Part shown: positions 3,142-54,661 of the stretch, one piece after another
How the letters are laid out: the number at the start of each line of letters is the position of its first letter
Numbering within the stretch: the stretch's first letter is position 1
Assembly: GCA_028716245.1 (NCBI GenBank)
Contig: JAQUQW010000001.1
Coordinates: 296,793 to 360,792 of the forward strand
Source of the DNA: Candidatus Omnitrophota bacterium
GTDB lineage: Bacteria > Omnitrophota > Gorgyraeia > Gygaellales > Profunditerraquicolaceae
Reading direction: 5' to 3'
Length of the DNA stretch: 64,000 nucleotides
Position numbers and translations under genes: made by a program
The notes under the pieces: model-generated
The model's database searches: none
Seen by the model: only the letters and a program-made list of their open reading frames with translations
Told to the model about the DNA's origin: nothing

Positions 3142-4908
3142 ATGGCTGGTCTTATTCCAGAAAATTTATTAGAAGATATCTTAAGCCGCGTGGATATCGT
3201 TGAGGTGATCTCCGGCTATATTCCGCTTAAGAAGTCTGGCCGTAATTTTAAGGCTAACTGTCCGTTTCACCATGAAAAAACAGCATCCTTTATGGTATCC
3301 GCGGAGCGCCAAATCTATCATTGTTTTGGCTGCGGTGAATCCGGTAATGCCTTTAAATTCCTTATGCGCCATGAGCGGATGGAGTTCCCTGAAGCGGTTG
3401 AGGTGCTGGCAAAAAAAACCGGGGTTATTTTACCTGAACAAAATAACCCGGCGGCGGCCAAGGCAGCCAGCTTAAGCAGCCAACTGCATAAAGTCAATGA
3501 GCTGGCAGTAAGTTTCTATGAGAATAATTTGCATGCTGCAAGTTCGGCTTCAGCATGTAATTATCTCTTAAATAGGGGCGTAAAACTCCAAACGGTAAAG
3601 GAGTTTCATTTAGGCCTGGCAACCAGCAACTGGGACAGCCTAATCAATTATTTAAGGTCAAAAAATATCGCTCTTTCGCTTCTGGAGCAGGCAGGCCTGG
3701 TCATGCCTAAAGATGCCGGGGGATTTTATGACCGTTTTCGCAACCGGATTATTTTTCCTATTTTTGATATTCGCAGCCGGGTAATCGGTTTTGGCGCCAG
3801 GGTAATGGACAATACCCTGCCTAAATATATCAATTCTCCGGAAACCCCGGTCTATACAAAAGGAAGGAATCTTTTTGGCTTGAATTTATCTAAAGATTTT
3901 ATCCGGGATGCCGATTGCGCGATAATTGTCGAAGGTTACCTGGATTTTATGATTCCTTATCAGGAAGGGGCCAAGAACATTGTAGCATCGCAGGGTACCG
4001 CCCTTACCTTAGAGCAGATCAAGTTGCTTAAGCGCTATACTCATAACGTAGTGATGATTTACGACGGGGATACGGCAGGGGAGATCGCCACCTTAAGAAG
4101 CCTGGATATCCTTATTGAAGAAGGCGTGAATGTAAAAGCAGTCCCGCTGCCAAAAGGGATGGATCCTGACTCCCTGGTGCGTAACCAAGGTATCGAAAAC
4201 TTCAAAGCCAAAGTCAATAATGCCAGCAGCTTATTTGATTATAAACTTAATGTTTTAAAGGGCCGTTATGATCTAAAGGAAGCCCACGGCAAAAGTAAGA
4301 TTGCCTCTGAAATGCTTTTGACGATTAATAAGTTTGATAATGCGATCCTGCGGGGAGAATACATTAAGAAATTAGCCGAGGAGATTAAAACTTCCGAACA
4401 TTATATTCTGGAGGAGCTGAACAAATTAAAATCGCCTGTTCTGGTGCGCCAGGCTGCTCCGGAAATTTTAGCGAAGAATAAATCCGAGATTAATCCGGCG
4501 GAAAAGCTTTTAATTAAATTCATGCTGGAGGAGAAAGAATTAATCTCAAGGATCATGCAGGAGCTTTCTCCGTCCGATTTCCAGGATTCCCGGACCGCTA
4601 AAATTGTTTCAGTAATGCATGATTTAGTCCTCCAGGGAAAAAATATCGCCCCCAGCATATTGATGAATTATTTTAGCGAAGATGACGCCAATCAGTTGGT
4701 TTGTGAAACTATGTTTATGCCCGAACTTTTAGATCAGGAAAGGGAAAAAGCCATTAATGACTGCATTGCGCGCATCAAAGTAGAAAGGCTAAAATCAAAG
4801 CGGGAACATTTACACGTGCAGATAAAAAGCGCCCAATTATTGGGGGATGAGCCGAAGTTAAACAGGCTCATTCAGGAATTTCATAATCTTATAAAGAAAG
4901 GCGACTAA
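3142..4908 (+). CDS. dnaG: DNA primase
   Basis: CHC2 zinc finger (CPFHHEKTASFMV...YHCFGCGESGN), TOPRIM region (IIVEGYLDF, DGDTAGE), and the conserved position ahead of rpoD. Confidence 0.9.
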   Translation: MAGLIPENLLEDILSRVDIVEVISGYIPLKKSGRNFKANCPFHHEKTASFMVSAERQIYHCFGCGESGNAFKFLMRHERMEFPEAVEVLAKKTGVILPEQNNPAAAKAASLSSQLHKVNELAVSFYENNLHAASSASACNYLLNRGVKLQTVKEFHLGLATSNWDSLINYLRSKNIALSLLEQAGLVMPKDAGGFYDRFRNRIIFPIFDIRSRVIGFGARVMDNTLPKYINSPETPVYTKGRNLFGLNLSKDFIRDADCAIIVEGYLDFMIPYQEGAKNIVASQGTALTLEQIKLLKRYTHNVVMIYDGDTAGEIATLRSLDILIEEGVNVKAVPLPKGMDPDSLVRNQGIENFKAKVNNASSLFDYKLNVLKGRYDLKEAHGKSKIASEMLLTINKFDNAILRGEYIKKLAEEIKTSEHYILEELNKLKSPVLVRQAAPEILAKNKSEINPAEKLLIKFMLEEKELISRIMQELSPSDFQDSRTAKIVSVMHDLVLQGKNIAPSILMNYFSEDDANQLVCETMFMPELLDQEREKAINDCIARIKVERLKSKREHLHVQIKSAQLLGDEPKLNRLIQEFHNLIKKGD

Positions 4909-8388: not shown

Positions 8389-8462
8389 GGGCCCATAGCT
8401 CAGTCGGTTAGAGCAGTTGACTCATAATCAATTGGTCCGGGGTTCGAGTCCCTGTGGGCCCA
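8389..8462 (+). tRNA. tRNA-Met (anticodon CAU), elongator-like
   Basis: Manual fold. Acceptor stem GGGCCCA/TGGGCCC, D stem GCTC/GAGC, anticodon loop CUCAUAA, T loop GTTCGAGTC. It resembles the elongator Met tRNA. Confidence 0.85.
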
Positions 8463-8476
8463 GTATAATTTTTTAT

Positions 8477-8550
8477 GGGCGATTGGCTCAGTTGGTTAGA
8501 GCGCCACATTCACATTGTGGAAGTCAGGGGTTCGAATCCTCTATCGCCCA
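8477..8550 (+). tRNA. tRNA-Val (anticodon CAC)
   Basis: Manual fold. Acceptor stem GGGCGAT/ATCGCCC, anticodon stem CCACA/TGTGG with loop TTCACAT, T loop GTTCGAATC. Confidence 0.85.
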
Positions 8551-8581
8551 AATTTATAACCCTGAGCTTTAAGGAGTAAAA

Positions 8582-9301
8582 TTGGCAACAATTGATTTAA
8601 AAAAACAGATCATCGGTTTAGTAAAATTACAGGAATTAGACAGCGAAATTTACGCTTTAGGAAATGAAAAGGCGGCTAAACCCCAGGAGATTGCGGGGCT
8701 TTTGGCTTCTTTTGAAGCAAAAAAACAGGATTTAGCTGAACTGGAAAAAAAATCCCTGGAGATACAAAAACAACGCAAGGAAAAAGAACTGGAACTGGCA
8801 ACCAACGCCGAAGCGGTAAAAAAACTTCAAGGCCAGCTTTATTCTTTAAAAACAAATAAAGAATTTCAGGCTATGCAACAGCAGATTGCCGATAACCAAG
8901 CCGATGGGTCGGTAATCGAAGAAAAGATCCTTATTTCTTTCGAGGAATCGGATAAGATAAAAGCCAGGATTGAAGAGGAAAATTTAAAGTTAAAAAATGA
9001 AGAGAAAATTTTTTCCGAGCAGAAAAAAAAGGTAGAGGCCCGCGTAAAAGAAATAGATGAGCGTTTGAGCCAATTAGATGCCCAAAGAAAACAGGCCGTT
9101 GCGGATATTGACCCGAAGATGCTGCATGAATATGAACGGATCCTGCAGAGCCGTGATGGTTTGGCTATTGCGGCAGTTAAGGATAATTCCTGCGGTGGCT
9201 GCCACATGCTGCTGCCTCCTCAGGTAATTAATTTGATTAAAATGTATGAGCATATCATTACCTGTGAGATGTGCAACCGCATTCTTTACATTAACGAATG
9301 A
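8582..9301 (+). CDS. COG1579-type coiled-coil zinc-ribbon protein
   Basis: Long coiled coil with a C-terminal CGGCHMLLPP...CEMCNRIL zinc ribbon. TTG start with an AAGGAG RBS. Conserved neighbourhood with Nif3 and RNase H. Confidence 0.7.
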   Translation: MATIDLKKQIIGLVKLQELDSEIYALGNEKAAKPQEIAGLLASFEAKKQDLAELEKKSLEIQKQRKEKELELATNAEAVKKLQGQLYSLKTNKEFQAMQQQIADNQADGSVIEEKILISFEESDKIKARIEEENLKLKNEEKIFSEQKKKVEARVKEIDERLSQLDAQRKQAVADIDPKMLHEYERILQSRDGLAIAAVKDNSCGGCHMLLPPQVINLIKMYEHIITCEMCNRILYINE

Positions 9302-9723
9302 GCCATTTGAAAATTTACATCGACGGGGCATCGAAAGGTAATCCGGGCGAAAGCGGGGTGGGAGTTGTTATTTATCAGGATGACCGCATTATCAAAAAAA
9401 TTTCAGAATATATAGGGAGCGCTACGAATAACGCGGCTGAATATACGGCCTTAATCTATGCCCTTGAGGAGGCGTTATTATTAAAAGCCAAGAGTTTAGA
9501 GATTAACACGGACAGCCAGCTTTTGGCCAGGCAATTAAATAAGCTCTACAAGGTTAAACACGCGGGTATAAAAAATTTTTACAACCGGGTAACGCATCTT
9601 TTGACGGGTTTTGATAAAGCGCTGATTATTCATATTCCGCGGGAGCAAAATAAATTAGCGGATAAATTGGCAACCGAAGCGGTTAAAAAAAGCAGGCAGA
9701 ACGTGGCTGCCCTATTGAGATAG
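9298..9723 (+). CDS. rnhA: ribonuclease HI
   Basis: IYIDGASKGNPGESGVGVVI, TNNAAEYTALIYAL and DSQLLARQL catalytic motifs of RNase H type 1. Confidence 0.85.
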   Translation: MSHLKIYIDGASKGNPGESGVGVVIYQDDRIIKKISEYIGSATNNAAEYTALIYALEEALLLKAKSLEINTDSQLLARQLNKLYKVKHAGIKNFYNRVTHLLTGFDKALIIHIPREQNKLADKLATEAVKKSRQNVAALLR

Positions 9724-10025
9724 GGAGGAAAGTCCGGGCTCCAGAGGATAACGTAACGGGTAACCCCCGTCTCTTAACGCAAGTTAAGACGGATTCGAGC
9801 CACAGAGACGAGTAGCAGCTAAGGCTGCGAGGTGAAACGCGGCAATCTCTACGTGGAGCAAAGCAGAATAGGAGATGAGCGCTGATCCGGCGCGTTCCGT
9901 ATTTGCGGGAAATAATCTCGGGTAAGCTGCTAAAGTTCCGGGAGAAATTCCGGGATTGAGAGGAATAGCCACTAATCGATGCGCAGATTCGCATCAAGAC
10001 AGAACCCGGCTTATTCTGCCTGCTT
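9690..10025 (+). ncRNA. rnpB: RNase P RNA (bacterial type A)
   Basis: Universally conserved GGAGGAAAGTCCGGGCTCC at 9724-9742 and ACAGAACCCGGCTTA at 9999-10013. P1 helix AGCAGGCAGAA (9691-9701) pairs with TTCTGCCTGCT (10014-10024). The 5' end overlaps the last 30 nt or so of rnhA. Confidence 0.8.
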
Positions 10026-10047
10026 AATTATTAAAGAGGAGGAAGTT

Positions 10048-12498: not shown

Positions 12499-13556
12499 GC
12501 CTGGATAGATTGCGTAACGAAATTGATTCGCTGGATTGTAAATTAATTAAATTATTAAATTTACGCGCCGAAGCGACCAAAAAGATCGGCAAAATCAAGA
12601 TTAATACCGGTAAAAGCATTTATACGCCGGAAAGAGAGATGGAAGTTTTACGTAAAATTATTTCTTTAAATAACGGCCCTTTAAAAAACGGGGCTCTTGA
12701 AGCCATTTACCGGGAAATTATGTCGGCGGGACTGGCTTTAGAGAAGCTTTTAAAAATTGCGTATATGGGGCCGCAGGCGTCTTTTAGTAATTTGGCCGCT
12801 TTAAAGAGATTTGGATCGCAGATGAGTTATATTGCCTGCGGAAGTATCCCGGAAGTATTTTTAGAAGTAGAAAGAGGCGCGGCAGATTACGGAGTTGTTC
12901 CGGTAGAGAATTCTATTGAGGGGGCAGTGACGCATACTTTAGATATGCTTGTGGATTCGGATCTAAAGATTTGCTCCCAGGTGATTTTGGATGTTTCACA
13001 TAATTTGCTGGCTAATTGCGCAAAAGATAAGATTCGCCGAGTTTATTCTAACCCGCAGGTTTTCGGGCAATGCCGAATCTGGCTGCAGAAAAATCTGCCC
13101 AACGCAGAGTTAGTGGATGTATCCAGCACAACCCGGGCGGCGGAAATGGCCAAGAAGGAAAAAAACAGCGCGGCTATCGCTTCGCTATTGGCTTCTAAAG
13201 TCTACGGTTTAAAAATAATCGCTTCCGGAATACAGGATTCTTTGCATAATATTACGCGTTTTTTAGTGGTTGGTAAAAATGTGGCAGCCAGGACCGGGCA
13301 TGATAAAACATCCTTGCTTTTTTCGATCAAGGACCATATCGGGGCCCTCTATGAGACGCTCCTGCCTTTTCGTAAATACGGGGTTAATCTTACCAAGATC
13401 GAATCCCGGCCGTCAAAAAAGAAAGCCTGGGAATATTATTTTTTTGTGGATATTTCCGGGCACAAAGATGACGCTAAAATACAGAAGGCGTTAAAGGAAT
13501 TGGAACATAAGTGTACTTACTTAAAAATATTGGGATCTTATCCGGTTGGAGAATAA
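12495..13556 (+). CDS. pheA: bifunctional chorismate mutase / prephenate dehydratase
   Basis: N-terminal chorismate-mutase helix (LRNEIDSLDCKLIKLLNLRAE), PDT domain (YMGPQASFS) and C-terminal ACT (FSIKDHIGALYETL). Confidence 0.85.
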   Translation: MSLDRLRNEIDSLDCKLIKLLNLRAEATKKIGKIKINTGKSIYTPEREMEVLRKIISLNNGPLKNGALEAIYREIMSAGLALEKLLKIAYMGPQASFSNLAALKRFGSQMSYIACGSIPEVFLEVERGAADYGVVPVENSIEGAVTHTLDMLVDSDLKICSQVILDVSHNLLANCAKDKIRRVYSNPQVFGQCRIWLQKNLPNAELVDVSSTTRAAEMAKKEKNSAAIASLLASKVYGLKIIASGIQDSLHNITRFLVVGKNVAARTGHDKTSLLFSIKDHIGALYETLLPFRKYGVNLTKIESRPSKKKAWEYYFFVDISGHKDDAKIQKALKELEHKCTYLKILGSYPVGE

Positions 13557-21169: not shown

Positions 21170-23899
21170 ATGAAAAAGCTATTATTCAAATACAGTGGCA
21201 GAGCGCTAGCAAGTTTGGCGCTTTTATCTTTATCGGCTGGTTTGGTTTTTGCCCAAAGCCAGGCGGCAGATTATCTTTGTGAATTGGGTAAAACTTTCTA
21301 TTCTTTAGGCAAGGTTGACGATGCCCTTTCCGAATTTCATAAGGCCCTTCTGGCGGATCCTGCCAATGAAACTGCCAAATTGTATATTAATAAAATTTTT
21401 AATCAAAACTTGAATTCTTCTTCTGAAAATATGGCCCCCGTAAGCGCTCCTGTCTTAGAAGCTAACAATTCAACTGAACCCAAAAAATATATGAGTAAAG
21501 AACAGGCTATGGATGAGGCGATGCTTAAGATGGAACCCAATACTGCCTCAAAAAAAGAGAGCAAAGGAATAAAGGCCGGGCCGCTTACCATAAGCGGACA
21601 GATGCAATTAAGCTTTGGCGTAACTGCCGATGATTTTATCTGGAAAAGGGCTAATTTTGATTTAAATGAAAAATCGAAAAGCTGGCGGATGAGTTCAGAG
21701 GCGGGTTTTAATAACCGGTTCAATACTTTTGATCCCCGGATCTACGATGGCTTAGCTGTTAATTTAGATACGGAAAATAAAGAAGGCTTCAATCTTCATT
21801 CCAATCTTACGGTTGACCCCTGGAGTTTTACCGGTAAGAGCAGTAAAACTACCATTACCAACGGTGGAGACCCCGCCGAAGTAGAATTATTATATTGGTC
21901 AAACACCGGGCTTGTGGTAAATCACACTGTTTACGGGGCGCTGAAAGGAACCACTCTTAATATTCCGGAGCTAAAGGTTGTTGATGAAAAAACTACCGCG
22001 ACCACGATTAATGGCTTTAATATCCCGAGCATGAAGATCCAGCGCCAGTTTCAGCCGGTGCGTGAATTATGGATGGATTACGCAAATGACCAGATAAAAT
22101 TCCGCGCTTTCCCCATGGGCCTGCAGGATCAGGCTTACAGTTCCGATGATCCTATGGGAATCAGCAATCACCATATCTGGTGGAAGGATAGCAGCTGGCT
22201 GCGTAGTTATACCCCCGGAGCGGCCCATTCCGGAAACACTCCCGTTGATTTTACCAAAGGCATTTGGGATGATTCCCTTTCATTTCTGACCAAAGATTCT
22301 ACCGGCAAATACCTTACGGCTTTAAGGGGCTTTTCTTTTAGCTTTTTACCGGATGAAAAATCTTCATTCGATACAACCTTTGCCACTCCTAAGCATCTCT
22401 GGCAGGATTACGGACAAGCGGATAACGTGATTAATGCCAGCCGTCTTAAACATTATTTCACTGATAATTTTATGGCTGGGGCAACCTTTACCAGCCGCAC
22501 GGGCTTTATCACTGAACCTAACCAGAAGCTAGACAGCCAGAATTATGTTGGCGGAGTAGATATTGGTTATGAAATGACCGAAGGATTAAAAGCACAGGCT
22601 GAAGTTTTATCCTCCCAATCTTTTTATGATATGAGTAATTCCGTTTTTAAGACACAGGCCCGCGGCAACGCCTATTATTTTTCATTTATCAGCCGTTACC
22701 CCCAGAAAAGTTTAATGGATTTAAAATACGGTTACGATGAGATAGCTTTGGATAAAGATGAAGATTACCTGCTGAAATCCAAATTTTACTTAAGCAGGAT
22801 GGACCGCGGATTTGATTCTTCTCTTTCCAGTTACCATGAAACCCGCCAGGATACCTTTTGGTCAAGGCATATTCATTTTCGTAAACCAATGGATTATTAT
22901 TCCGCAGGATTATACGATTCTACTACTAATTGGGGGGAGCTTAATTCAACACGGATTGGTGATGGCATTGATGCCGGCAGAAATACCATTGGTTTTCGCG
23001 TTGAATCATCCCTGAAAGATAAAGTCTATAACCTTTTCGACGTACGCAATGTCCATAATGTTAACGGTAAATTTATCGAGAATGTGGTGCGCGATGAAGC
23101 AACGGTAGGAGTTACGGATAAATTAAGCGCCAAAATTCTGGGTATTTACCAGAAACTTCCGCGTACCCTTGGCGGGACCGATCCGTTTATCTATGACGGC
23201 AATACCGGTAATTTTTTTCTCAATGCCGCTGTCCCCGATGGGAATAACCCGTCGATTATCACCGGATCCTTTGGCCTTAATTATGATTTCTTTGATTGGT
23301 TAAGTTTAAACGGTATTTACGAACGCACCAATGATTATTATCTGGCTTATGATGGTTTTCCGGCCAATACTTTACGCGACGATACCAATTTATTCGGTAG
23401 ATTTCATCAAAATGATAACCTTTACTCATTTAAACAGCCGTTTCTTTATAGCCAAGGCGGGTTTCCTCAAGCCCCATACGAATATTATAATGTTTTTAAG
23501 ACCGGCCTAAGAATAATGCCGATTAATAACCTGGAGCTTTACCTTGATTATACGCGTAATCAATTCGAGAGTGCCGCCCAAAACTCGGATGGGATGAACC
23601 ATGTTGGCATTGAAATGACTTATATGCCAACTAAGAAGTTCGGAATGGCTTTAAAATATACTTACTCCCGGTGGCAGGATACTGACCGGCTGGTTGCCGG
23701 CAACACTAACCCGCTTGGCCACCATAATTTCTTCGGTGAATTTAGATATCTGCCTTCCAGGGATGATGAATTTATCCTGCAATACGGAGAGGGCAATACC
23801 AGTAATTTAGGTAACTTTTCCCTTGATCCTTACGGAGGCACCTCCCTCACCATTGATACTGCGCATATCTTGCGCGCCTATTACCGCAGAAAGTTTTAA
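21170..23899 (+). CDS. large secreted outer-membrane beta-barrel candidate (909 aa) with N-terminal TPR-like helix pair
   Basis: Signal peptide (MKKLLFKYSGRALASLALLSLSAGLVFAQS), a beta-rich body with alternating hydrophobic residues, and a C-terminal YYRRKF ending in Phe (OMP targeting signature). Confidence 0.6.
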   Translation: MKKLLFKYSGRALASLALLSLSAGLVFAQSQAADYLCELGKTFYSLGKVDDALSEFHKALLADPANETAKLYINKIFNQNLNSSSENMAPVSAPVLEANNSTEPKKYMSKEQAMDEAMLKMEPNTASKKESKGIKAGPLTISGQMQLSFGVTADDFIWKRANFDLNEKSKSWRMSSEAGFNNRFNTFDPRIYDGLAVNLDTENKEGFNLHSNLTVDPWSFTGKSSKTTITNGGDPAEVELLYWSNTGLVVNHTVYGALKGTTLNIPELKVVDEKTTATTINGFNIPSMKIQRQFQPVRELWMDYANDQIKFRAFPMGLQDQAYSSDDPMGISNHHIWWKDSSWLRSYTPGAAHSGNTPVDFTKGIWDDSLSFLTKDSTGKYLTALRGFSFSFLPDEKSSFDTTFATPKHLWQDYGQADNVINASRLKHYFTDNFMAGATFTSRTGFITEPNQKLDSQNYVGGVDIGYEMTEGLKAQAEVLSSQSFYDMSNSVFKTQARGNAYYFSFISRYPQKSLMDLKYGYDEIALDKDEDYLLKSKFYLSRMDRGFDSSLSSYHETRQDTFWSRHIHFRKPMDYYSAGLYDSTTNWGELNSTRIGDGIDAGRNTIGFRVESSLKDKVYNLFDVRNVHNVNGKFIENVVRDEATVGVTDKLSAKILGIYQKLPRTLGGTDPFIYDGNTGNFFLNAAVPDGNNPSIITGSFGLNYDFFDWLSLNGIYERTNDYYLAYDGFPANTLRDDTNLFGRFHQNDNLYSFKQPFLYSQGGFPQAPYEYYNVFKTGLRIMPINNLELYLDYTRNQFESAAQNSDGMNHVGIEMTYMPTKKFGMALKYTYSRWQDTDRLVAGNTNPLGHHNFFGEFRYLPSRDDEFILQYGEGNTSNLGNFSLDPYGGTSLTIDTAHILRAYYRRKF

Positions 23900-23901
23900 A
23901 A

Positions 23902-23966
23902 CTAGGGAGCGCTTCTATTTTTCTTTCAGAACTATGTAACAAAAAAAATAGAAACGGTCCCTAGTT
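23902..23966. terminator. bidirectional intrinsic terminator hairpin between convergent genes
   Basis: CTAGGGAGCGCTTCTATTTTT at 23902-23922 is complementary, with 2 mismatches, to AAAAATAGAAACGGTCCCTAG at 23944-23964. It has T-runs on both sides. Confidence 0.6.
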
Positions 23967-23967
23967 T

Positions 23968-26900
23968 TTATTCAAGATAAATATCGATTTGCTTAATTTG
24001 GCGTGATCTTACTTTTTGGGCATAAAGCGGGCCAAGCGTTGCGGATTTTATTTCTATAGGGTGATCGTTTTCAAAAATGATTATTTTGGAAATTTTTGCC
24101 GCGTTTTTTCCAAAAGTATTTTTTCTTTTCGGATTATGGTAAGTTACCCGGATTTGGCTTAAGAAATTAAAAGCATATTTTCCATTCCTATCGAATAACC
24201 AGCCGGCCAGGTTTGGTTTAAATGTTAAATTAAGCTCTCCGTTATTATCTAAAGAAAATGGGCAGGCCCCGGCATTCATGATCAACCAGATATTCAGGAA
24301 TTCCGCGGTTGAGCCGGAGAGCCTGGCGACAAATCCGTTTCCGTGCAATTTTTTATCGGCAAACACGCTGCTTACCAGAAAAGAGGAATTTTCAAGTATG
24401 CTGCGCCCGTATCTTTGCGGGTCCTGGAAAGGGATGAGCACGTTTTTAAATTCCGCGTAAAATTCATCAATCAACCCGCCTTTAAGCAGCTCCAGGATAT
24501 ATTTATACTCCATATGCAGCCAGATGGATTCATTTTCCAGCCAACCGGGAGTGAATACCCGACATCTGCCGATTTCTTCCGGCATAGAACCAAGGTTGGA
24601 AGTCACTTTATACATTCTAAGTTTTTTATCAAAAAGCGCGCTTTTCTTGGTTGATTTATGCAAAGACAAGAGATGTTTTTTGTCTTCGGTAAGCCTTAAG
24701 GCATGCATTTGGCCTTCAAGAAAGAGAGGGACTGTTTTTTGGGTAAATTTTTTCGGTTTTATACGGTGATCATCAATCAAATCATATTCGGTAATCTCAT
24801 TAATAAAATATGAATTATAAATCCCTTGCCTGCTGTTAAAAGCTTTGCTTAATCCCAACTCAACTTTCTTTAATGCCGCGTCCACAAAACTAATAAGCTT
24901 GGCAACGGCCAAATTTACCGAAATCCCGGAAAAACCAAGGCGTATATTAGAACGGTATGTTTCTTTTAGCGCATTGCTCTTATCCCAATAAGTAAAATCA
25001 TCCTCAGAGAACAAGAGAGAGAGCCCCTCGATAAAATTAGAGATTTCATCGGCAAGTTCAATTTCATTAATCTTTGAATTTTCTAACGCCCCTTTGATCA
25101 TCTTAAGCAGGCGTTTTAGTTCAAAGGTTTCACAACTGGAGGAACCCAAAAGCGCCGGCAGCCCGTTAAGAGAATCAAACCAGTTAGGTTTATTGGCTTC
25201 CATCTCGATACCGGTACCAAAAGGGTCAAGGGAGGCCAATTTATTCGCCGCCAGGCACAGAAGTTTAGCGATAAGGGTAGTGTAATAGATTTGGCCGCTG
25301 CCGGACTGTGCCCTTAAAAGATGCGGATTATCCAAACGTTTGCGCAGTATTTCTTTTTTGGTGGCATCAAGCACAAGGGAGTGCAATTGGCGCGGCAGGC
25401 CGTTATAAAGGACGTATCTTTCGCTGCGCGGCCTGACTAATTCGGCGTTATCATAGAAGGAAAAAACTTTTCGGTGAAAGAATAATTCATTAAATCTTTC
25501 AGGGTAAATCCCCAGGTAACTGTCGATTAAGTCCAGGTTATAGGTCCAGTGGTCAGTCCAAAAGCCTTCAGCATGCTCAGCTTCCTGTGATTTTAGCGCG
25601 GAAGAGAGTATCAGATTTAGAAAATCATCATAAGAACATTTAAGTTTTATTTTATTATCTTCAATAAAGATAATTAACTCACCTGGGGTGAAGGTTTTTT
25701 TAAAAAAGGCGCTAAGTTTATCGATATCATTTTTTTCAGCCACGGCTGCCAGCAGCCTGTAAAGATCCAGGTTGTCTTTGAGCAGGAAACTTTCGCCTTT
25801 TACGATCAGGGGATTAAAACCGTCAGCCTGGATTAGATTCATGAAGAAGACAATATTTTCATCGTTTATCTCAGGATTAAACCAGGGATCATTGCGCCGG
25901 TTTTGGTTTGTATCGCGGTAATTACCGTTGCCTTGGGAAAAATAAGTCGGCTGGAGCACAAACTTATTGTAATCCCTTTCCAGGTCACCGTGTTTACGTG
26001 AATAAAGATAAAAAACCACCCCGGATTTAAAAACTTCCGGGTAGCCGCCGCGCATAATGTTATCCAGGTAAGTCTGTCCGGCGTATAAATCAAAAGCTTT
26101 AGAGCTGCTTTGAGTTAAAATATCATCTTTTAATTCCCGGATTAGTTTGGAACTTTCCTTCATTTTGGTTTCTATGTAACCGAATTTCATAATTTTTCCA
26201 ACCGAACTATTTAAAGTTTTGGTGTCGCGGACCTGGCCGATTACCGAATAAAATGTTTTTTGCTCTTTGGCCCCCAGCTCAAGGCTCATTAAAAGCAAAG
26301 CGCTGGGAGTTTTACTTTTGGTCATTTGCTGGGCAGGATATTGAAATTTATGCTTGGCCAGGAATTGGGCAGGGTAAGAGAAATCGGTTACTGCCCCAAA
26401 AACAGCTTCAGGGTCGACTATTGGCCGGATAAGTTGGGATTTGGTACCATTAAAATGAAAACCCATATAAAAATTCCCGTGCTCAATATGCACTACCTCC
26501 GGCCGGTCCGAAGGGTCAACTGCTAATTTATAAAAAGGGACATCATTATTCAGGTTATCGGTATTCATCCAGGCTTCGATAGTGCGGCCGAGTTTCTTCA
26601 GGAAAAAATTGTTCGTGCCAAAAGGGACAATCTGCGGCAGACCGTCAATAATCTCCATGGACCTGGGTTTAGGCGACGTATTTTCAATAGAAACGGTCCG
26701 GCTTAAGCCGGCGTAGGTATCATTAGGAATATTAAAATATTCTACGCGTGTTTTTATCCCTAATGTCCGGTTTTCTTCTTCCAAAATGAGTTTATCCGAA
26801 TCTATACGCATAGAGTTGGTTATCTGGTACTTTAAATTCAGGCAGCCGTTGTGAAACGGCTCGTAATAGAGAAGTTTTTTTGCGGATTTAATTTTAATGA

Positions 26901-27168
26901 AGGTGCGGAATCCTTGGGCAGAAACAAACTGCCAGGATTTATTCGCCGGAAAGAATTCTAAAATCGACTGGTCTTTATCCTTGGTGCCGAAGCTGCTGAT
27001 ACACTGGCCGCGGTTAACGTAGAAGACCCACATGGGGATCCCGTATTTTCCGGCAATCCCCGGAAAAAAGTTAGCGAAAGGTTTGGCGTAATTGTAATTT
27101 TGGATAACAAATTCGCCCTGTTTATTTAAATAATACTTTACTTTTGCTTGCTTAGATTTTATTTCCAT
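23968..27168 (-). CDS. GH94-like glycoside phosphorylase family protein (1066 aa; cellobiose / beta-1,2-glucan phosphorylase-like six-hairpin fold)
   Basis: N-terminal GH94-like beta-sandwich (FVIQNYNYAKPFANFFPGIAGKYGIPMWVFYVNRGQ), an NWFDSLNGL segment resembling the GH94 GDWNDGLN motif, and a size similar to long GH94 enzymes. Confidence 0.5.
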   Translation of the reverse strand: MEIKSKQAKVKYYLNKQGEFVIQNYNYAKPFANFFPGIAGKYGIPMWVFYVNRGQCISSFGTKDKDQSILEFFPANKSWQFVSAQGFRTFIKIKSAKKLLYYEPFHNGCLNLKYQITNSMRIDSDKLILEEENRTLGIKTRVEYFNIPNDTYAGLSRTVSIENTSPKPRSMEIIDGLPQIVPFGTNNFFLKKLGRTIEAWMNTDNLNNDVPFYKLAVDPSDRPEVVHIEHGNFYMGFHFNGTKSQLIRPIVDPEAVFGAVTDFSYPAQFLAKHKFQYPAQQMTKSKTPSALLLMSLELGAKEQKTFYSVIGQVRDTKTLNSSVGKIMKFGYIETKMKESSKLIRELKDDILTQSSSKAFDLYAGQTYLDNIMRGGYPEVFKSGVVFYLYSRKHGDLERDYNKFVLQPTYFSQGNGNYRDTNQNRRNDPWFNPEINDENIVFFMNLIQADGFNPLIVKGESFLLKDNLDLYRLLAAVAEKNDIDKLSAFFKKTFTPGELIIFIEDNKIKLKCSYDDFLNLILSSALKSQEAEHAEGFWTDHWTYNLDLIDSYLGIYPERFNELFFHRKVFSFYDNAELVRPRSERYVLYNGLPRQLHSLVLDATKKEILRKRLDNPHLLRAQSGSGQIYYTTLIAKLLCLAANKLASLDPFGTGIEMEANKPNWFDSLNGLPALLGSSSCETFELKRLLKMIKGALENSKINEIELADEISNFIEGLSLLFSEDDFTYWDKSNALKETYRSNIRLGFSGISVNLAVAKLISFVDAALKKVELGLSKAFNSRQGIYNSYFINEITEYDLIDDHRIKPKKFTQKTVPLFLEGQMHALRLTEDKKHLLSLHKSTKKSALFDKKLRMYKVTSNLGSMPEEIGRCRVFTPGWLENESIWLHMEYKYILELLKGGLIDEFYAEFKNVLIPFQDPQRYGRSILENSSFLVSSVFADKKLHGNGFVARLSGSTAEFLNIWLIMNAGACPFSLDNNGELNLTFKPNLAGWLFDRNGKYAFNFLSQIRVTYHNPKRKNTFGKNAAKISKIIIFENDHPIEIKSATLGPLYAQKVRSRQIKQIDIYLE

Positions 27169-27234
27169 TTTGGTTTAAGTTAATTAGTAGTATTTTACAC
27201 ATTTTAATGGATTTGTCAATCTCAAGATGTTAAT

Positions 27235-27272
27235 ACGACCCTATTTCCCGATTGGTTAGGAAATAGGGTCGT
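27235..27272. repeat. palindromic element (14-bp arms) in a divergent intergenic region
   Basis: ACGACCCTATTTCC ... GGAAATAGGGTCGT. It shares the AAATAGGG/CCCTATTT core with palindromes at 23902, 43681 and 44716. Confidence 0.4.
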
Positions 27273-27330
27273 TTGATGGAATCCAGGATGTTGACTTTTA
27301 ATAAAAGGGTGTTAGAATATTAAGAAATAA

Positions 27331-27420
27331 CACCCCGCGCTACCTGGCGTTTAATTGAATTGCGCCAGTATCCGCCTCGTGGCGGATTATAATGCGGGTG
27401 TGCCCTTGTGGGCAAGGAGG
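27331..27420 (+). promoter_or_regulatory. structured leader element copy A (ACCCCGCGC ... GCGGGTG family) immediately upstream of gatC
   Basis: CACCCCGCGC pairs with GCGGGTG, enclosing hairpins CTGGCG/CGCCAG and TCCGCC/GGCGGA. A terminal hairpin GTGCCC-TTGT-GGGCA abuts the SD AAGGAGG. It is homologous to the elements at 33631, 50851 and 61881. Confidence 0.4.
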
Positions 27421-41411: not shown

Positions 41412-41488
41412 GGCGGAGTAGCTCAGCCTGATAGAGCACGCGGCTCATACCCGCTTGGTCGGTGGTTTAAATCCACTCTCCGCCACCA
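41412..41488 (+). tRNA. tRNA with CAU anticodon (tRNA-Ile2/lysidine-type or Met); CCA encoded
   Basis: Manual fold. Fully paired acceptor stem GGCGGAG/CTCCGCC, anticodon loop CUCAUAC, T arm GGTGGTTTAAATCCACT. The body resembles E. coli ileX more than metT, and tilS lies 2.3 kb downstream. Confidence 0.8.
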
Positions 41489-41696
41489 TTTTTTAGCGAT
41501 TGTGTTTTGAAGTAAATCTCAGCAGTAAAATTAAATACCTAACTGTGTCACACTATCTATCAACATAAACTCTCTCGTTTGGCCTGTGGTTAGGACCCAA
41601 TAGGGAAGGAACCATAAAAAATCAATATAAATTAACTTATAACTTTTTGCAGTACAATAAGTTATAATCCTCAAAAAAGATAAATTCACCCCCCAC

Positions 41697-42359: not shown

Positions 42360-43640
42360 TTAACTACTACTTGAGATTTCTTTGGCGAGTTTTTCAATAA
42401 TCAGTGAAGTAAGAATAAATACACCTGCCTCAGTGAAGACCGTAGCTAATGCTGCCCCCACGTAAGAGAATTGATGTATAAGTATGAATATCAGCGGCAA
42501 ACCGATAAGCGCGGCGGCAACATGAATCTTAGCGTATAAATCCTGTTTACCGCAGACAAGCAAAAACTGTACCTTAAAGTTATTCGCGCCGACAAAAAAT
42601 ACCGCAGCCAACAGCAATCTTAAAGCAAGCACTACTTCTTTATAAGCAACCCCGCAGGTAATCTGGATAATCCAGGGAGCGATAAAATAGGCAATCGGCA
42701 GGCTGACTACAAAGCCTAAGGTTATGCCGTCCTGGATCCGAAACATTATCGCTACCGCCCGCTGTTTATTTTTCGCGAACACATTGCTGATCCTGGGGAA
42801 TACCGCCCGGGTAAATGAATCCATGGGGAAGGTCTGGATAATATTGGCGATCCTTTCGGCAATAGAATAGTATCCGGTAATCACGTTATTGGTAAGTAAC
42901 CCCACCGCAAAAACCCGGGTAGTCGTATAGGCGTTAACCGCCAGGATAGAAATAAAAATATCCCAGCCGGTTTTAAGTTCTTGTTTTATATGAACATATT
43001 TCAGGAAAACAAATTCCAGGCGGAATTTCCTAAAAGCGATATAGAGGCCAAGAATTCCGCTGATTATGGATAGCAGAGAGTTTAATAACGGCACCAAAAG
43101 GAAATCACCGGGGCCCTTTATAAAAACAAAAATACAAATTGCGTATACTATACCGCTGATCACGTTAACTGTGGCAATATAGCTCATTTTTTCTTTGCCC
43201 TGAAAAAACCAGACTGGAAATAAAGTGCTGCCGATTACGGCGCCGAAGCTTAAAGTATAAACCAACCAATCATTCCTGAATCTAGGCACAAAATAGAGGA
43301 TCGCGCAGAGGATTATAAAGCTCAATCCCGCGAATATCAGTTTTACGGTCATTACCGATGAAAATACCTTGCTGGTCTTTTCCTTATGTTCTCCGATAAG
43401 CGCGATTGTTTTAGTCGCTGAAAGGCTGAAACCGTAGTCGGTTAAAATCAGGAAATATTGCACCAGGCTCTGGGCAAAAGCGATCAGGCCGAATTTTTCC
43501 ATTCCAATTACCCGGATAAGATAGGGAAGGACGACTAAAGGAAGGATATAGCTGATACCTTGAAGGGTGGTCAGGGAAATGAAATTTCCCAGGACGATTT
43601 TTCTTTCTTTATGTGTTACGATTTTTTTACGCACCATCAT
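42360..43640 (-). CDS. Wzx-like polysaccharide/oligosaccharide flippase (MOP superfamily)
   Basis: 12 or more TM helices, with a Wzx-type N-terminus KKIVTHKERKIVLGNFISLTTLQGISYILPLVVLPYLIRVIGMEKFG. The start is set at the MMV codons (43640) rather than the ORF-track start at 43673, which abuts the palindrome. Confidence 0.6.
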   Translation of the reverse strand: MMVRKKIVTHKERKIVLGNFISLTTLQGISYILPLVVLPYLIRVIGMEKFGLIAFAQSLVQYFLILTDYGFSLSATKTIALIGEHKEKTSKVFSSVMTVKLIFAGLSFIILCAILYFVPRFRNDWLVYTLSFGAVIGSTLFPVWFFQGKEKMSYIATVNVISGIVYAICIFVFIKGPGDFLLVPLLNSLLSIISGILGLYIAFRKFRLEFVFLKYVHIKQELKTGWDIFISILAVNAYTTTRVFAVGLLTNNVITGYYSIAERIANIIQTFPMDSFTRAVFPRISNVFAKNKQRAVAIMFRIQDGITLGFVVSLPIAYFIAPWIIQITCGVAYKEVVLALRLLLAAVFFVGANNFKVQFLLVCGKQDLYAKIHVAAALIGLPLIFILIHQFSYVGAALATVFTEAGVFILTSLIIEKLAKEISSSS

Positions 43641-43680
43641 CCATAATTTACACTTTAAGATCCATAAAGTCAATATTTTT

Positions 43681-43728
43681 AATAGGGACAGCGACCATTT
43701 TTTTAAAAAAAATGGTCGCTGTCCCTAT
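43681..43728. repeat. perfect 24-bp-arm palindrome in the divergent spacer between the flippase gene and tilS
   Basis: AATAGGGACAGCGACCATTTTTTT | AAAAAAATGGTCGCTGTCCCTATT, with no loop. It fills most of the divergent intergenic space. Core shared with the other palindromes. Confidence 0.5.
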
Positions 43729-43750
43729 TTTCTATGGTAAAATAAGTTTT

Positions 43751-44710
43751 ATGAATAAATTCAAGGAAACAATCAAAAAATACAACCTGATCCAAAAAGG
43801 CGATAAAATCCTGGTTGGAGTTTCCGGCGGGCCGGATTCACTGACCCTGCTTTTGCAACTCTTTAACCTAAAATCAAAATTGGGATTGGCTTTACATATT
43901 GCCCATCTTGATCACGGCTTACGGAAAAATTCCGGCGCGGATGCTCTTTTTGTAAAGAAATGGGCTAAGCGGCTCAATATCCCCATGAGCATAAAACAAA
44001 TTGACCCCAAGCTCCTTAAGGAAAAAGGCTCTCTTGAGGAGCTTTGCCGAAACGCAAGGTTAGATTTTTTTATTAAAACCGCAAAGAAAATCAAAGTAAA
44101 CAAGGTTGCTTTGGGGCATAACCTTGATGACCAGGCCGAAACAGTCTTAATGCGCCTGTTGCGGGGAACAGGTTTATCCGGATTAAGCGGAATATCTTTA
44201 CAGCGGAAAATCAATGGGGTCACTTTTATCCGTCCGCTTTTGGAAACTTCCCGTTATGAAATTAATAAATATCTAAAACGCAGGGGAATAAAACCGCGCA
44301 TCGATTCAACGAATAAGGAAGAGGTATTCTTGCGTAATAAGATCCGCCACAATTTAATTCCCTTATTAAAAAGTAAGTACAATCAAAATATCGTTAGCGT
44401 CTTGGCAAATCTGGCGGAAAGTGTTTCTTATGATTATGAATACCTTGATCAGGCCGCCCGGCGCAGCCTAAAAGGTAATACCAGCCATCTCAATATTAAG
44501 AAAATCCTTAAATTGCACCCGGCAATTTTACGCCTTAAAATCAGGCAGAGTATCGGCTATCTTCAGGGGAATACGCGCCGGATAGGATTTGTGCACATCA
44601 AAGAAATAGAGGATTTACTAAATAGCCGGCCAAAAGGATCAATTGTCGATTTGCCTAAAGGAATCTCGGTACAAAAAACCCGCGCTTACCTGCGATTTTA
44701 TAAGCGTTAG
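43751..44710 (+). CDS. tilS: tRNA(Ile)-lysidine synthetase
   Basis: PP-loop VGVSGGPDSLTLL; tilS-ftsH synteny. The ATG at 43751 is the first one after the palindrome. Confidence 0.85.
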   Translation: MNKFKETIKKYNLIQKGDKILVGVSGGPDSLTLLLQLFNLKSKLGLALHIAHLDHGLRKNSGADALFVKKWAKRLNIPMSIKQIDPKLLKEKGSLEELCRNARLDFFIKTAKKIKVNKVALGHNLDDQAETVLMRLLRGTGLSGLSGISLQRKINGVTFIRPLLETSRYEINKYLKRRGIKPRIDSTNKEEVFLRNKIRHNLIPLLKSKYNQNIVSVLANLAESVSYDYEYLDQAARRSLKGNTSHLNIKKILKLHPAILRLKIRQSIGYLQGNTRRIGFVHIKEIEDLLNSRPKGSIVDLPKGISVQKTRAYLRFYKR

Positions 44711-44715
44711 AATCA

Positions 44716-44765
44716 GGGACCGTTTCTAGTTTTTTGGGGAAAAATAGAAACGTTCCCTAGTTTTT
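44716..44765 (+). terminator. intrinsic terminator after tilS (repeat-family hairpin)
   Basis: GGGACCGTTTCTA at 44716-44728 pairs with TAGAAACGTTCCC at 44745-44757, followed by TAGTTTTT. The right arm is nearly identical to the right arm at 23944-23966. Confidence 0.55.
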
Positions 44766-44767
44766 CC

Positions 44768-44796
44768 TTGATTTTACCTCCTTTAACCGCTATAAT
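44768..44796 (+). promoter_or_regulatory. sigma-70-like promoter for ftsH
   Basis: TTGATT at 44768-44773, a 17-nt spacer, then TATAAT at 44791-44796. Confidence 0.4.
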
Positions 44797-50657: not shown

Positions 50658-50730
50658 GCCGGCGTAGCTCAGTTGGCAGAGCGGCTGTTTTGTAAACAGC
50701 GGGTCGGGGGTTCAATTCCTCTCGCCGGCT
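50658..50730 (+). tRNA. tRNA-Thr (anticodon UGU)
   Basis: Manual fold. Acceptor stem GCCGGCG/CGCCGGC, anticodon stem GCTGT/ACAGC with loop TTTGTAA. Confidence 0.85.
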
Positions 50731-50746
50731 TTTGATAAATAAAATC

Positions 50747-50833
50747 GGGCAGGTACCCAAGTTGGTCAAAGGGGACAGACTGTAAATCTGTTGCACTTGT
50801 GCTTCAGAGGTTCGAATCCTCTCCTGCCCACCA
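50747..50833 (+). tRNA. tRNA-Tyr (anticodon GUA), long variable arm, CCA encoded
   Basis: Acceptor stem GGGCAGG/CCTGCCC, anticodon loop CTGTAAA, and a long extra arm. Confidence 0.85.
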
Positions 50834-50850
50834 TTTTAATACTTTCGCAG

Positions 50851-50900
50851 CACCCGGCGCTAATAGGTATTGCGTCGGTGCGCGCTAGGTAGCGCGGGAG
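50851..50900 (+). promoter_or_regulatory. structured leader element copy C, inserted between tRNA-Tyr and tRNA-Gly; its 3' end merges with the tRNA-Gly acceptor stem
   Basis: CACCCGGCGCTAATAGGTATTGCGTCGGTGCGCGCTAGGTAGCGCGGGAG is about 85% identical to the central part of copy B (33631-33690). The terminal GCGGGAG is the first 7 nt of tRNA-Gly. Confidence 0.4.
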
Positions 50901-50964
50901 TAGTTCAGTGGTAGAACAATAGCCTTCCAAGCTATATATGGGGGTTCGATTCCCCTCTCCCGCT
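50894..50964 (+). tRNA. tRNA-Gly (anticodon UCC)
   Basis: Acceptor stem GCGGGAG/CTCCCGC, anticodon stem ATAGC/GCTAT with loop CTTCCAA, discriminator U. Confidence 0.85.
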
Positions 50965-54584: not shown

Positions 54585-54661
54585 CGGGGCGTGGCTCAGC
54601 TTGGTAGAGCGCTTGAATGGGGTTCAAGAGGTCACAGGTTCAAGTCCTGTCGCCCCGACCA
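54585..54661 (+). tRNA. tRNA-Pro (anticodon GGG), CCA encoded
   Basis: C1-G72 acceptor stem (CGGGGCG/CGCCCCG), anticodon stem CTTGA/TCAAG with loop ATGGGGT. Confidence 0.8.

Follow-up and report, generated by a model that had tools for sequence, protein, structure and literature searches.

Two kinds of described systems come closest to the repeats reported here. The first comprises repetitive extragenic palindromic (REP) sequences, the hairpins formed by REP doublets (REPINs) and the REP-associated tyrosine transposases (RAYTs) (Nunvar 2010; Bertels & Rainey 2011, PMC3116915; Bertels 2017, PMC5581495). The second, the TIRtrons or TIRYTs, comprises RAYT-like genes set between long terminal inverted repeats (TIRs) which are not GTAG-tagged REPs; some of these TIRs form moderately abundant families, and one TIR group has the tip GGGGWSAS (Di Nocera et al. 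2013, PMC3733652). Here we analyse four inverted repeats, copies 1 to 4, located in a 64,000-nt stretch (hereafter the window) of a Candidatus Omnitrophota metagenome-assembled genome (MAG). Three of them are REP-like repeats with an associated transposase and fall into two families, copies 1 and 2 into family A and copy 3 into family B; the fourth is unrelated. Families A and B are very likely dispersed hairpin repeats corresponding to the terminal inverted repeats of RAYT-like Y1 (HUH) elements, with copies 1 and 2 probably acting as terminators as well, and the TIRtron/TIRYT arrangement is their best match. The REP/REPIN-RAYT and TIRtron systems characterised so far come mostly from Proteobacteria, a few further phyla having yielded some cases, and a full-text literature search returned no paper describing such repeats in Omnitrophota.

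The first-pass annotation of the window had reported four inverted repeats together with their gene contexts. All four were found, at or within a few bases of where it had placed them, and in the contexts that it had described:

Copy 1, 23898..23968: fills the entire spacer between the convergent TPR gene (+) and GH94-like gene (-); arms 23898-23925 and 23941-23968 (28 nt, 89% match, gap of 15 nt), with 18-nt core arms at 23905-23922 (two mismatches to the family A consensus) and 23944-23961 (identical to the consensus).
Copy 2, 44711..44765, plus strand: hairpin starting 5 nt past the tilS stop codon; arms 44715-44733 and 44740-44758 (19 nt, 89% match, gap of 6 nt), with core arms at 44716-44733 and 44740-44757 (one mismatch each to the consensus).
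Copy 3, 43681..43729: family B arms (AATAGGGACAGCGACCATTTTTTT) in a head-to-head pair of 24+1+24 nt; arms 43681-43704 and 43706-43729 (24 nt, 100% match, a single unpaired A between them).
Copy 4, 27235..27272: perfect palindrome of 14+14 bp in the spacer between the GH94-like gene (-) and gatCAB (+); arms 27235-27248 and 27259-27272 (14 nt, 100% match, loop of 10 nt).

These are the longest and strongest intergenic inverted repeats of the window. As RNA (plus/minus strand), copy 1 is predicted to fold with -26.8/-33.0 kcal/mol (z -6.7/-8.1 relative to shuffled sequences), copy 3 with -36.3/-36.8 kcal/mol (z -12.3/-13.4) and copy 4 with -22.8/-25.2 kcal/mol (z -4.2/-7.2), whereas the fold of copy 2 is moderate, unlike that of the other three (-20.1 kcal/mol, z -2.8). 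Copy 3 had been described as a perfect 24+24 palindrome; its arms are indeed fully complementary, but the unpaired A brings it to 49 bp instead of 48. The right arms of copies 1 and 2 do differ by a single base, as announced, over 26 positions, and the number of such matches expected by chance is 0. No Rfam family matches any of the hairpins.

The four repeats had also been presented as a single family sharing a core, an idea which is not borne out. Exact matches to ATAGGGAC are confined to copy 3, one per arm (2 matches in the window for 1.5 expected), and AAATAGGGAC with at most one mismatch is found 10 times for 6.3 expected, which is not above chance. Profile searches of the window with nhmmer delineate two families plus an orphan: they recover exactly four A arms and two B arms, and copy 4 belongs to neither profile. 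The only thing common to families A and B is a TAGGGAC tip, the sole real part of the alleged core. One could still argue that all four hairpins and a site at 41.6 kb are diverged members of one family built on the AAATAGGGAC core, given this shared tip, the short AAATAGGG(AC)-like units that are tandemly repeated beside some family B arms, and the right arm of copy 4, which reads GGAAATAGGGTC. However, the core is not enriched in the window, neither the A nor the B profile picks up copy 4 or the 41.6-kb site with a threshold as loose as E=10, the GGG end of copy 4 points outward from its right arm, which is the opposite geometry, and ~1.3 Mb of related DNA fetched for this analysis contains no second copy 4 arm. 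We thus hold a single family to be unlikely. The 41.6-kb site itself, listed as a degenerate copy at about 41560, is the sequence GGTTAGGACCCAATAGGGAAGG at 41589-41610 (plus strand), downstream of tRNA-Met; it folds no better than chance (z -0.8), matches neither profile, is only partly conserved in the related locus L002, and was rejected.

Family A hairpins consist of nearly invariant 18-nt arms, GGGACCGTTTCTATTTTT and AAAAATAGAAACGGTCCC, surrounding a variable loop. A scan with the pattern AAAATAGAARCGNTCCCNAG, in which each of 185,579 species was represented by a single genome, retrieved 52 loci, ~31 of them in Omnitrophota MAGs, including 11 matches in KR13_N1.mb.50, 6 in E14_maxbin.165, 5 in MEGAHIT-group-0.17 and 3 each in C19_metabat.bin.11_sub and STD1_64. 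About 20 matches lie outside Omnitrophota, a number that fits a rough chance expectation of a few tens (17-18 specified bases, ~1.2e12 positions), and they have no partner arm except in L032, which is labelled Planctomycetales. Complete Omnitrophota matches are always the right arm of a hairpin, the left arm GGGACCGTTTCTATTTTT being found 3 to ~100 nt upstream. After removal of duplicates, 40 distinct hairpins were obtained from at least nine Omnitrophota MAGs, in ~0.28 Mb of Omnitrophota DNA. Both arms match the consensus perfectly in half of these (20/40), six carry GGGAAC/GTTCCC and five the sub-variant GGGGACGGTTCTATTTTT / AAAAATAGAACCGTCCCC; in these sub-variants, a change in one arm is matched by a compensating change in the other. 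The two copies of the window belong to the minority whose arms are imperfect. In an alignment restricted to the arms, 91.5% of the cells pair and seven pairs are changed on both sides, and the covariation score exceeds those of all 500 shuffles and of all slid controls, although shared ancestry of the copies inflates these counts. Loops vary freely in sequence and in length (3-102 nt), and some of them hold a complete hairpin of another family.

With respect to genes, 25 family A copies separate co-directional neighbours and 5 separate convergent ones, no copy being located in a divergent spacer, with 3 placed inside doubtful open reading frame calls and 5 at a locus edge. The first-pass annotation had argued from the promoter-side location of copies 3 and 4 that its family was a dispersed REP-like palindrome and not a set of independent terminators. 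This argument fails for family A, as none of 33 classifiable copies is in a divergent spacer; the conclusion itself nevertheless stands for copies 1, 2 and 3, but not for copy 4. Family A copies begin from -1 to ~30 nt past the upstream stop codon, and many of them end just 13-23 nt before the next start codon, which places the ribosome binding site directly behind the stem. Every copy has T-rich sequence (at least 5 of 9 nt) on one flank or more, and 21 of 39 have it on both.

Such features invite the explanation that these hairpins are ordinary, lineage-typical terminators which evolved independently and resemble one another only in their stem-plus-T-run shape. Copies 1 and 2 do have a stable stem followed by T-runs (U-runs in the transcript) exactly at gene ends, and the T-rich flanks of all family A copies point the same way. 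However, an 18-nt stem common to dozens of loci and species is not a property of ordinary terminators, and neither is the bracketing of transposase genes, whereas family A arms are identical at no fewer than 20 non-orthologous sites in at least nine MAGs and do bracket such genes, as detailed below. Moreover, many copies located 13-23 nt before the next start codon leave no room for a promoter, copy 3 sits where nothing needs terminating, and a generic promoter/terminator scan of the window found terminator-like sites no more often than expected from shuffled sequence. This explanation is therefore highly improbable. A simple terminator scan reported only copy 3 among the hairpins, copies 1 and 2 having been missed because their loops exceed the size limits of the scan.

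As members of a dispersed family, copies 1 and 2 are probably intrinsic terminators too, since their stems (-20 to -33 kcal/mol), located at gene 3' ends, are flanked by T-runs, which extend beyond the stem on both strands in copy 1. Judging from the sequence, copy 1 would terminate transcription in both directions between the convergent genes and copy 2 would do so after tilS. The terminator role appears dispensable, as neither copy is present in the closest relative and numerous members of the family lie inside apparent operons. By analogy with REPs, the latter would more plausibly serve as stabilising or attenuating hairpins.

Family B is defined by the arm AAATAGGGACAGCGACCATTTT, and copy 3 is a consensus-perfect doublet of it. 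Scanning metagenomes with the pattern ATAGGGACAGCGAYCNTTTT detected family B at 120 loci or more, with at least 156 matches. The consensus of 196 family B arms, aAAATAGGGACAGCGACCaTTTTt, is identical to both arms of copy 3. Among the matches listed, 50 inverted pairs and 112 solitary arms were counted, and some arms occur in short direct arrays or behind tRNA genes. Part of the family at least resides in more distant Omnitrophota, because L153 encodes a GH94-like homologue with 60% identity. Families A and B are seldom found on the same contig. The only side-by-side case seen outside the window is L052 (4282-4351, Omnitrophota MAG KR13), in which a solitary family B arm, AAAACGATCGCTGTCCCTAT, stands directly behind a family A hairpin. 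Viral contigs returned two single arms for family A, no match for family B and only single-arm chance matches for copy 4; there is no phage link.

Two additional repeat families were observed in the loops of family A hairpins. Family C is a GTAG-tagged perfect palindrome, GTAGGGGAGGTTTAAACCTCCCCTAC, present in up to seven copies within 8 kb and absent from the window; it lies inside the loop of family A hairpins in L046, at the site orthologous to copy 1, and in L047. Family D is a hairpin, GGGGACACTTTCC ... GGAAAGTGTCCCC, nested in family A loops of MAG E14_maxbin.165 (L016, L029, L033 and L050).

Family C sites: L011 at 937, 2516, 4574, 4667, 7584, 7636 and 7753; L022 at 2645 and 4439; L046 at 5071; L047 at 2378; L177 at 8648-8673 and 12789-12820.
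Family D example: L033 at 2056-2102, within the family A hairpin at 2030-2127.

The first-pass annotation had proposed looking for a cognate RAYT gene, and such genes do exist in related sequences: a Y1 transposase gene lies between family A arms in five contigs (L178-L182) and downstream of such arms in L055, while family B arms bracket another transposase clade in six metagenome contigs. In the latter (L130, L174, L140, L066, L104 and, frameshifted, L155, among the matches listed), a gene of ~224 codons lies between inverted arms, one located 35-55 nt before its ATG and the other 2-5 nt past its stop codon. Contigs with bracketed transposases account for seven of the eight wide arm pairs, spaced 705-725 nt, among the matches listed. 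The B-type protein scores 56 bits with Pfam Y1_Tnp (cut-off 23), the NCBIfam model that it matches best is that of the REP-associated tyrosine transposase (70 bits for a cut-off of 80), and it reaches 21 bits with the IS200 model. Using tblastn, homologues of this protein were detected in family A loci with 33-37% identity. In L055, from Omnitrophota MAG KR13, a family A hairpin precedes a Y1 transposase gene by ~70 nt. The homologues P0308 (93% identity) and P0319 (78%) are encoded between family A arms in L178-L182; there the left arm lies ~100 nt upstream of the gene and the right arm overlaps its stop codon, such that the transposase gene occupies the "loop" of a family A hairpin. The only PDB match of the A-type protein is E. 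coli TnpArep (4ER8, E=0.0025), with the HUH (HxH) and YxxxNPV motifs aligned. Just inside the left arm of the gene-bearing A element, the sequence TACTATTTTTT... also constitutes the loop of short hairpins in L010, L030 and L051, which, from sequence, is what an internal-deletion derivative would look like. The B-type gene is found behind the same tRNA-like gene in three contigs, and the A-type gene behind birA in L055 and L178.

Partial tandem duplications of the outer repeat tips adjoin the transposase genes (L179 at ~50-110; L180, L181 and L182 just past the stop codon; L178 at 3679-3710) as well as some family B arms, at many loci (e.g., L060, L065, L066 and L108). Examples are AATAATGGGACCGTTTCTAG + AATAATGGGACCG..., GAAACGGTCCCTTTAATACTTT present twice, and consecutive AAATAGGGAC-like units. 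These duplications may be footprints of repeated cleavage and rejoining at the tips. Another RAYT-like gene, encoding P0291 (annotated as an Omnitrophota transposase), lies at 4763-5353 of L033 between inverted copies of a short palindrome of its own, GGGGACGCTCCCC; these genomes consequently contain several transposase/repeat pairs.

The A and B systems share with TIRtrons a Y1 gene located between TIRs which are not GTAG-tagged palindromes, a 3' repeat that can overlap the end of the gene, as the family A right arm does, and TIRs that are also dispersed as singles, dimers and groups. In our own comparison with the quoted GGGGWSAS motif, the tips of family D (GGGGACAC), family B (AGGGACAG), subfamily A2 (GGGGACGG) and family A (AGGGACCG) agree at 8, 7, 7 and 6 of 8 positions, respectively. 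They differ from TIRtrons in the phylum, Omnitrophota, and in their arm sequences, both of which are new, in the almost exclusive occurrence of family A as tight inverted pairs (hairpins) whose arms are conserved across species, and in loops that take nested copies of other families. As in REP/REPIN-RAYT systems, short extragenic palindromic repeats occur in many copies at the ends of genes, inverted copies of these repeats enclose a Y1 transposase gene, several families coexist and have a separate transposase each, one of the RAYT types stands in conserved synteny (L177), and the best NCBIfam match of the proteins is REP_Tyr_transpos, though below its equivalog cut-off. Unlike in REPINs, neither the 18-nt A arm nor the 20-nt B arm is self-complementary, so that a hairpin forms only between arms and there is no REP doublet.

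Other mobile elements are more distant. IS200/IS605 elements encode an IS200-type TnpA, carry different subterminal hairpins at each end and occur as multiple full-length copies. The transposase clades described here reach only 20-27 bits with the IS200 model, whose cut-off is 55, and the ends of their elements are complementary to each other. Classical miniature inverted-repeat transposable elements (MITEs) derive from DDE transposons and make target-site duplications. Families A and B resemble MITEs such as Correia/NEMIS of Neisseria, being non-autonomous TIR-loop-TIR forms derived from a gene-bearing element that are located at gene ends and can act as terminators, but the enzyme here is a HUH tyrosine transposase, and no target-site duplication was seen at copies 1 and 2.

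We propose that the short A and B hairpins would be the two ends of an element without its gene, comparable to MITEs or REPINs. On single-stranded DNA the arms would pair as a hairpin, which the cognate transposase, acting in trans, would cleave and rejoin, by analogy with published work on E. coli TnpArep; copies would as a result spread to, and vanish from, transcribed gene ends. The orthologous sites of related genomes were compared. Close homologues of TilS and of the GH94-like protein number in the hundreds and, where named, all come from Candidatus Omnitrophota/Omnitrophica. The closest relative is GCA_041643255.1 (L001 and L003; 92-93% protein identity), followed by GCA_028715785.1, isolate STD1_64 (L002, L046 and L177; 90%), GCA_041643235.1 (L183; 90%) and the relatives on two JGI contigs, L004 (88%) and L184 (85%).

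Copy 1 site, occupied: window, L004, L046 (family A hairpin with a family C palindrome nested in its loop) and L183 (sub-variant arms plus one further compensated change).
Copy 1 site, remnant: L184, right arm alone, GAAACGGCCCCCAG.
Copy 1 site, empty: L003, with the convergent genes 3 bp apart.
Copy 2 site, occupied: window and L002 (perfect palindrome of the sub-variant, subfamily A2).
Copy 2 site, cleanly empty: L001 (AAAACCG running directly into TAGTTTTTCC).
Copy 3 site: present in the window, absent from L001 and L002.
Copy 4 site: present in the window and L003, absent from L183, L184 and L004.

The remnant in L184 denotes loss by deletion, while at the copy 2 site the sub-variants are not the same, which points to replacement or concerted change. 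Filled and empty orthologous sites display no visible target-site duplication for either copy 1 or copy 2. Copy 3 is probably a recent, near-neutral insertion into a divergent spacer, a recent origin that fits its consensus-perfect sequence.

Alternatively, the arms could be selected recognition sites that are not transposed, such as DNA-uptake-type signals or sites for a nucleoid or termination protein. In Neisseria and Haemophilus, uptake signals are often inverted pairs forming terminators. Nearly invariant arms around loops free in length and sequence would agree with this proposition, as would the retention of the copy 1 site across several species and, for family B, the 112 solitary arms against 50 pairs among the matches listed. 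Yet family A arms are almost never single or inside genes, both families form the inverted termini of Y1 transposase genes, and orthologous sites are cleanly empty in the closest relative. Selected recognition sites are consequently improbable, and we favour transposase-associated terminal repeats for both families.

Several observations nevertheless weigh against these repeats being mobile ends of RAYT-like elements. Mobility is inferred from the way in which they are distributed and from the E. coli enzyme. Several species have the copy 1 site filled and one has a half-deleted remnant, a pattern which shows loss and not gain, and the two family A copies of the window, being imperfect, may be relics of some age. 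The combination of invariant arms and highly variable loops agrees with selection on the arms, or with hairpin-templated correction, no less than with recent copying. Families A and B have no GTAG tag, which is found only in family C; their tips are (C/A)TAGGGAC and vary outside GGGAC, a difference from REPs. All transposase clades tested score 55-74 bits with NCBIfam REP_Tyr_transpos, below the equivalog cut-off of 80. No RAYT gene was found in the 64-kb window by tblastn, and the only RAYT traced to the contig inferred as its source is of a third type, with flanks different from A and B. This protein, P0297 (MDD5476656.1), represents a third RAYT-like clade and is encoded on a 649,478-bp contig inferred to be the source contig of the window. 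A protein 100% identical to the GH94-like protein of the window is encoded on an NCBI contig of 649,478 bp. The P0297 orthologue in STD1_64 (L177, 10001-10687) has tyrS on one side and a PQ-loop gene on the other, and its flanks are inverted GTAGACAGTTTAC-like sequences, without A or B arms. The third type, located at a conserved syntenic position, is at least 90% identical across several MAGs, an identity which suggests a domesticated, vertically inherited copy.

The genes and signals surrounding the four copies in the window are the following:

TPR gene, plus strand, stop codon 23897-23899: encodes a 909-aa protein.
GH94-like gene, 23968..27168, minus strand, stop codon 23968-23970: encodes 1066 aa, annotated elsewhere as "cellobiose phosphorylase".
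GH94-like promoter-like site, 27192..27219, minus strand: TTGACA-16-TAAAAT, with its -35 box 16 nt off copy 4; conserved in all orthologues.
gatCAB promoter-like site, 27291..27318, plus strand: TTGACT-16-TAGAAT with TG, its -35 box 19 nt off copy 4.
tilS, 43751..44710, plus strand: copy 3 upstream, copy 2 downstream.
ftsH promoter-like site, 44768..44796, plus strand: TTGATT-17-TATAAT, right behind copy 2; conserved in L001 and L002.

Copies 1 and 4 bracket the GH94-like gene, the former at the 3' end and the latter upstream. The copy 2 tail, TAGTTTTT (44758-44765), is directly upstream of the ftsH promoter-like site. Copy 3 occupies the divergent spacer between a Polysacc_synt flippase gene (minus strand, start ~43640) and tilS. 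The tilS start codon lies 7 nt past an extended -10 sequence, TGGTAAAAT (43735-43753), and the flippase start almost directly behind a -10-like TAAATT (43640-43673). Neither start has a Shine-Dalgarno sequence, so the mRNAs of both genes may be leaderless; the layout is the same in L001 and L002.

Copy 4 is a lineage-specific orphan palindrome which is kept symmetric and most likely acts at the DNA level. It is probably not transcribed, since it lies between two -35 boxes. The only two differences between the window and L003 over its 38 bp form a symmetric compensating pair (CCCTATTT/AAATAGGG vs CCCTGTTT/AAACAGGG), for which we estimated a chance of ~1% given two random substitutions. It may represent an operator or what is left of a different repeat family. 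More specifically, copy 4 could be the operator of a dimeric regulator controlling the divergent GH94-like and gatCAB promoters, as its perfect 14-bp dyad, whose centre falls between two -35 boxes, and the compensating pair would suggest. However, copy 4 is an insertion found in the two closest genomes only, the flanking promoters are conserved in L183, L184 and L004, which do not have it, no regulator gene adjoins it, and hairpin-templated repair also yields symmetric changes. An operator thus remains a doubtful, albeit possible, explanation for this orphan palindrome. An E-value-based Rfam search around copy 4 gave only a miRNA match, which is meaningless and was discarded.

Direct repeats resembling (A/G)ACATCTTGAG, spaced by ~14 nt, lie upstream of the -35 box of the GH94-like promoter (27273-27290 in the window; 3440-3500 in L183). 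Copy 4 appears to have been inserted among these repeats, which may be regulator binding sites. On the other side of the spacer, the gatC leader (27322-27420, plus strand) contains a structured segment of ~90-100 nt, whose outer stem, ACACCCCGC/GCGGGTGT, surrounds two GC-rich hairpins (-42 kcal/mol, z -3.6, no Rfam match); spacer lengths suggest that it is absent from the orthologous spacers of L003 and L183.

A broader proposal for families A and B is that hairpins which domesticated Y1 transposases have spread supply much of the transcription punctuation of this clade, both as terminators and as intra-operon hairpins, that co-resident families nest in each other's loops, and that their arms are kept uniform across species by the transposase or by hairpin-templated correction. 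We put this forward as a speculation that is more probably wrong than right. If true, terminators would be a mobile, transposase-maintained commodity and not locally evolved signals. In practical terms, families A and B provide ready-made markers for Omnitrophota genomes, and their hairpins should not be annotated as independent terminators or operators. The repeats may also help explain assembly breaks, the closest A-type transposase homologues having been found only on contigs shorter than 10 kb. The system is well suited to studying how a HUH transposase maintains the same 18-nt arms in different species when the loops drift, how hairpins come to be used as terminators and how different families nest.

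The window also contains an RNase P RNA gene (class A, 167 bits) and seven tRNA genes (9692-10027; 8389-8551; 41412-41488; 50658-50964; 54585-54661).

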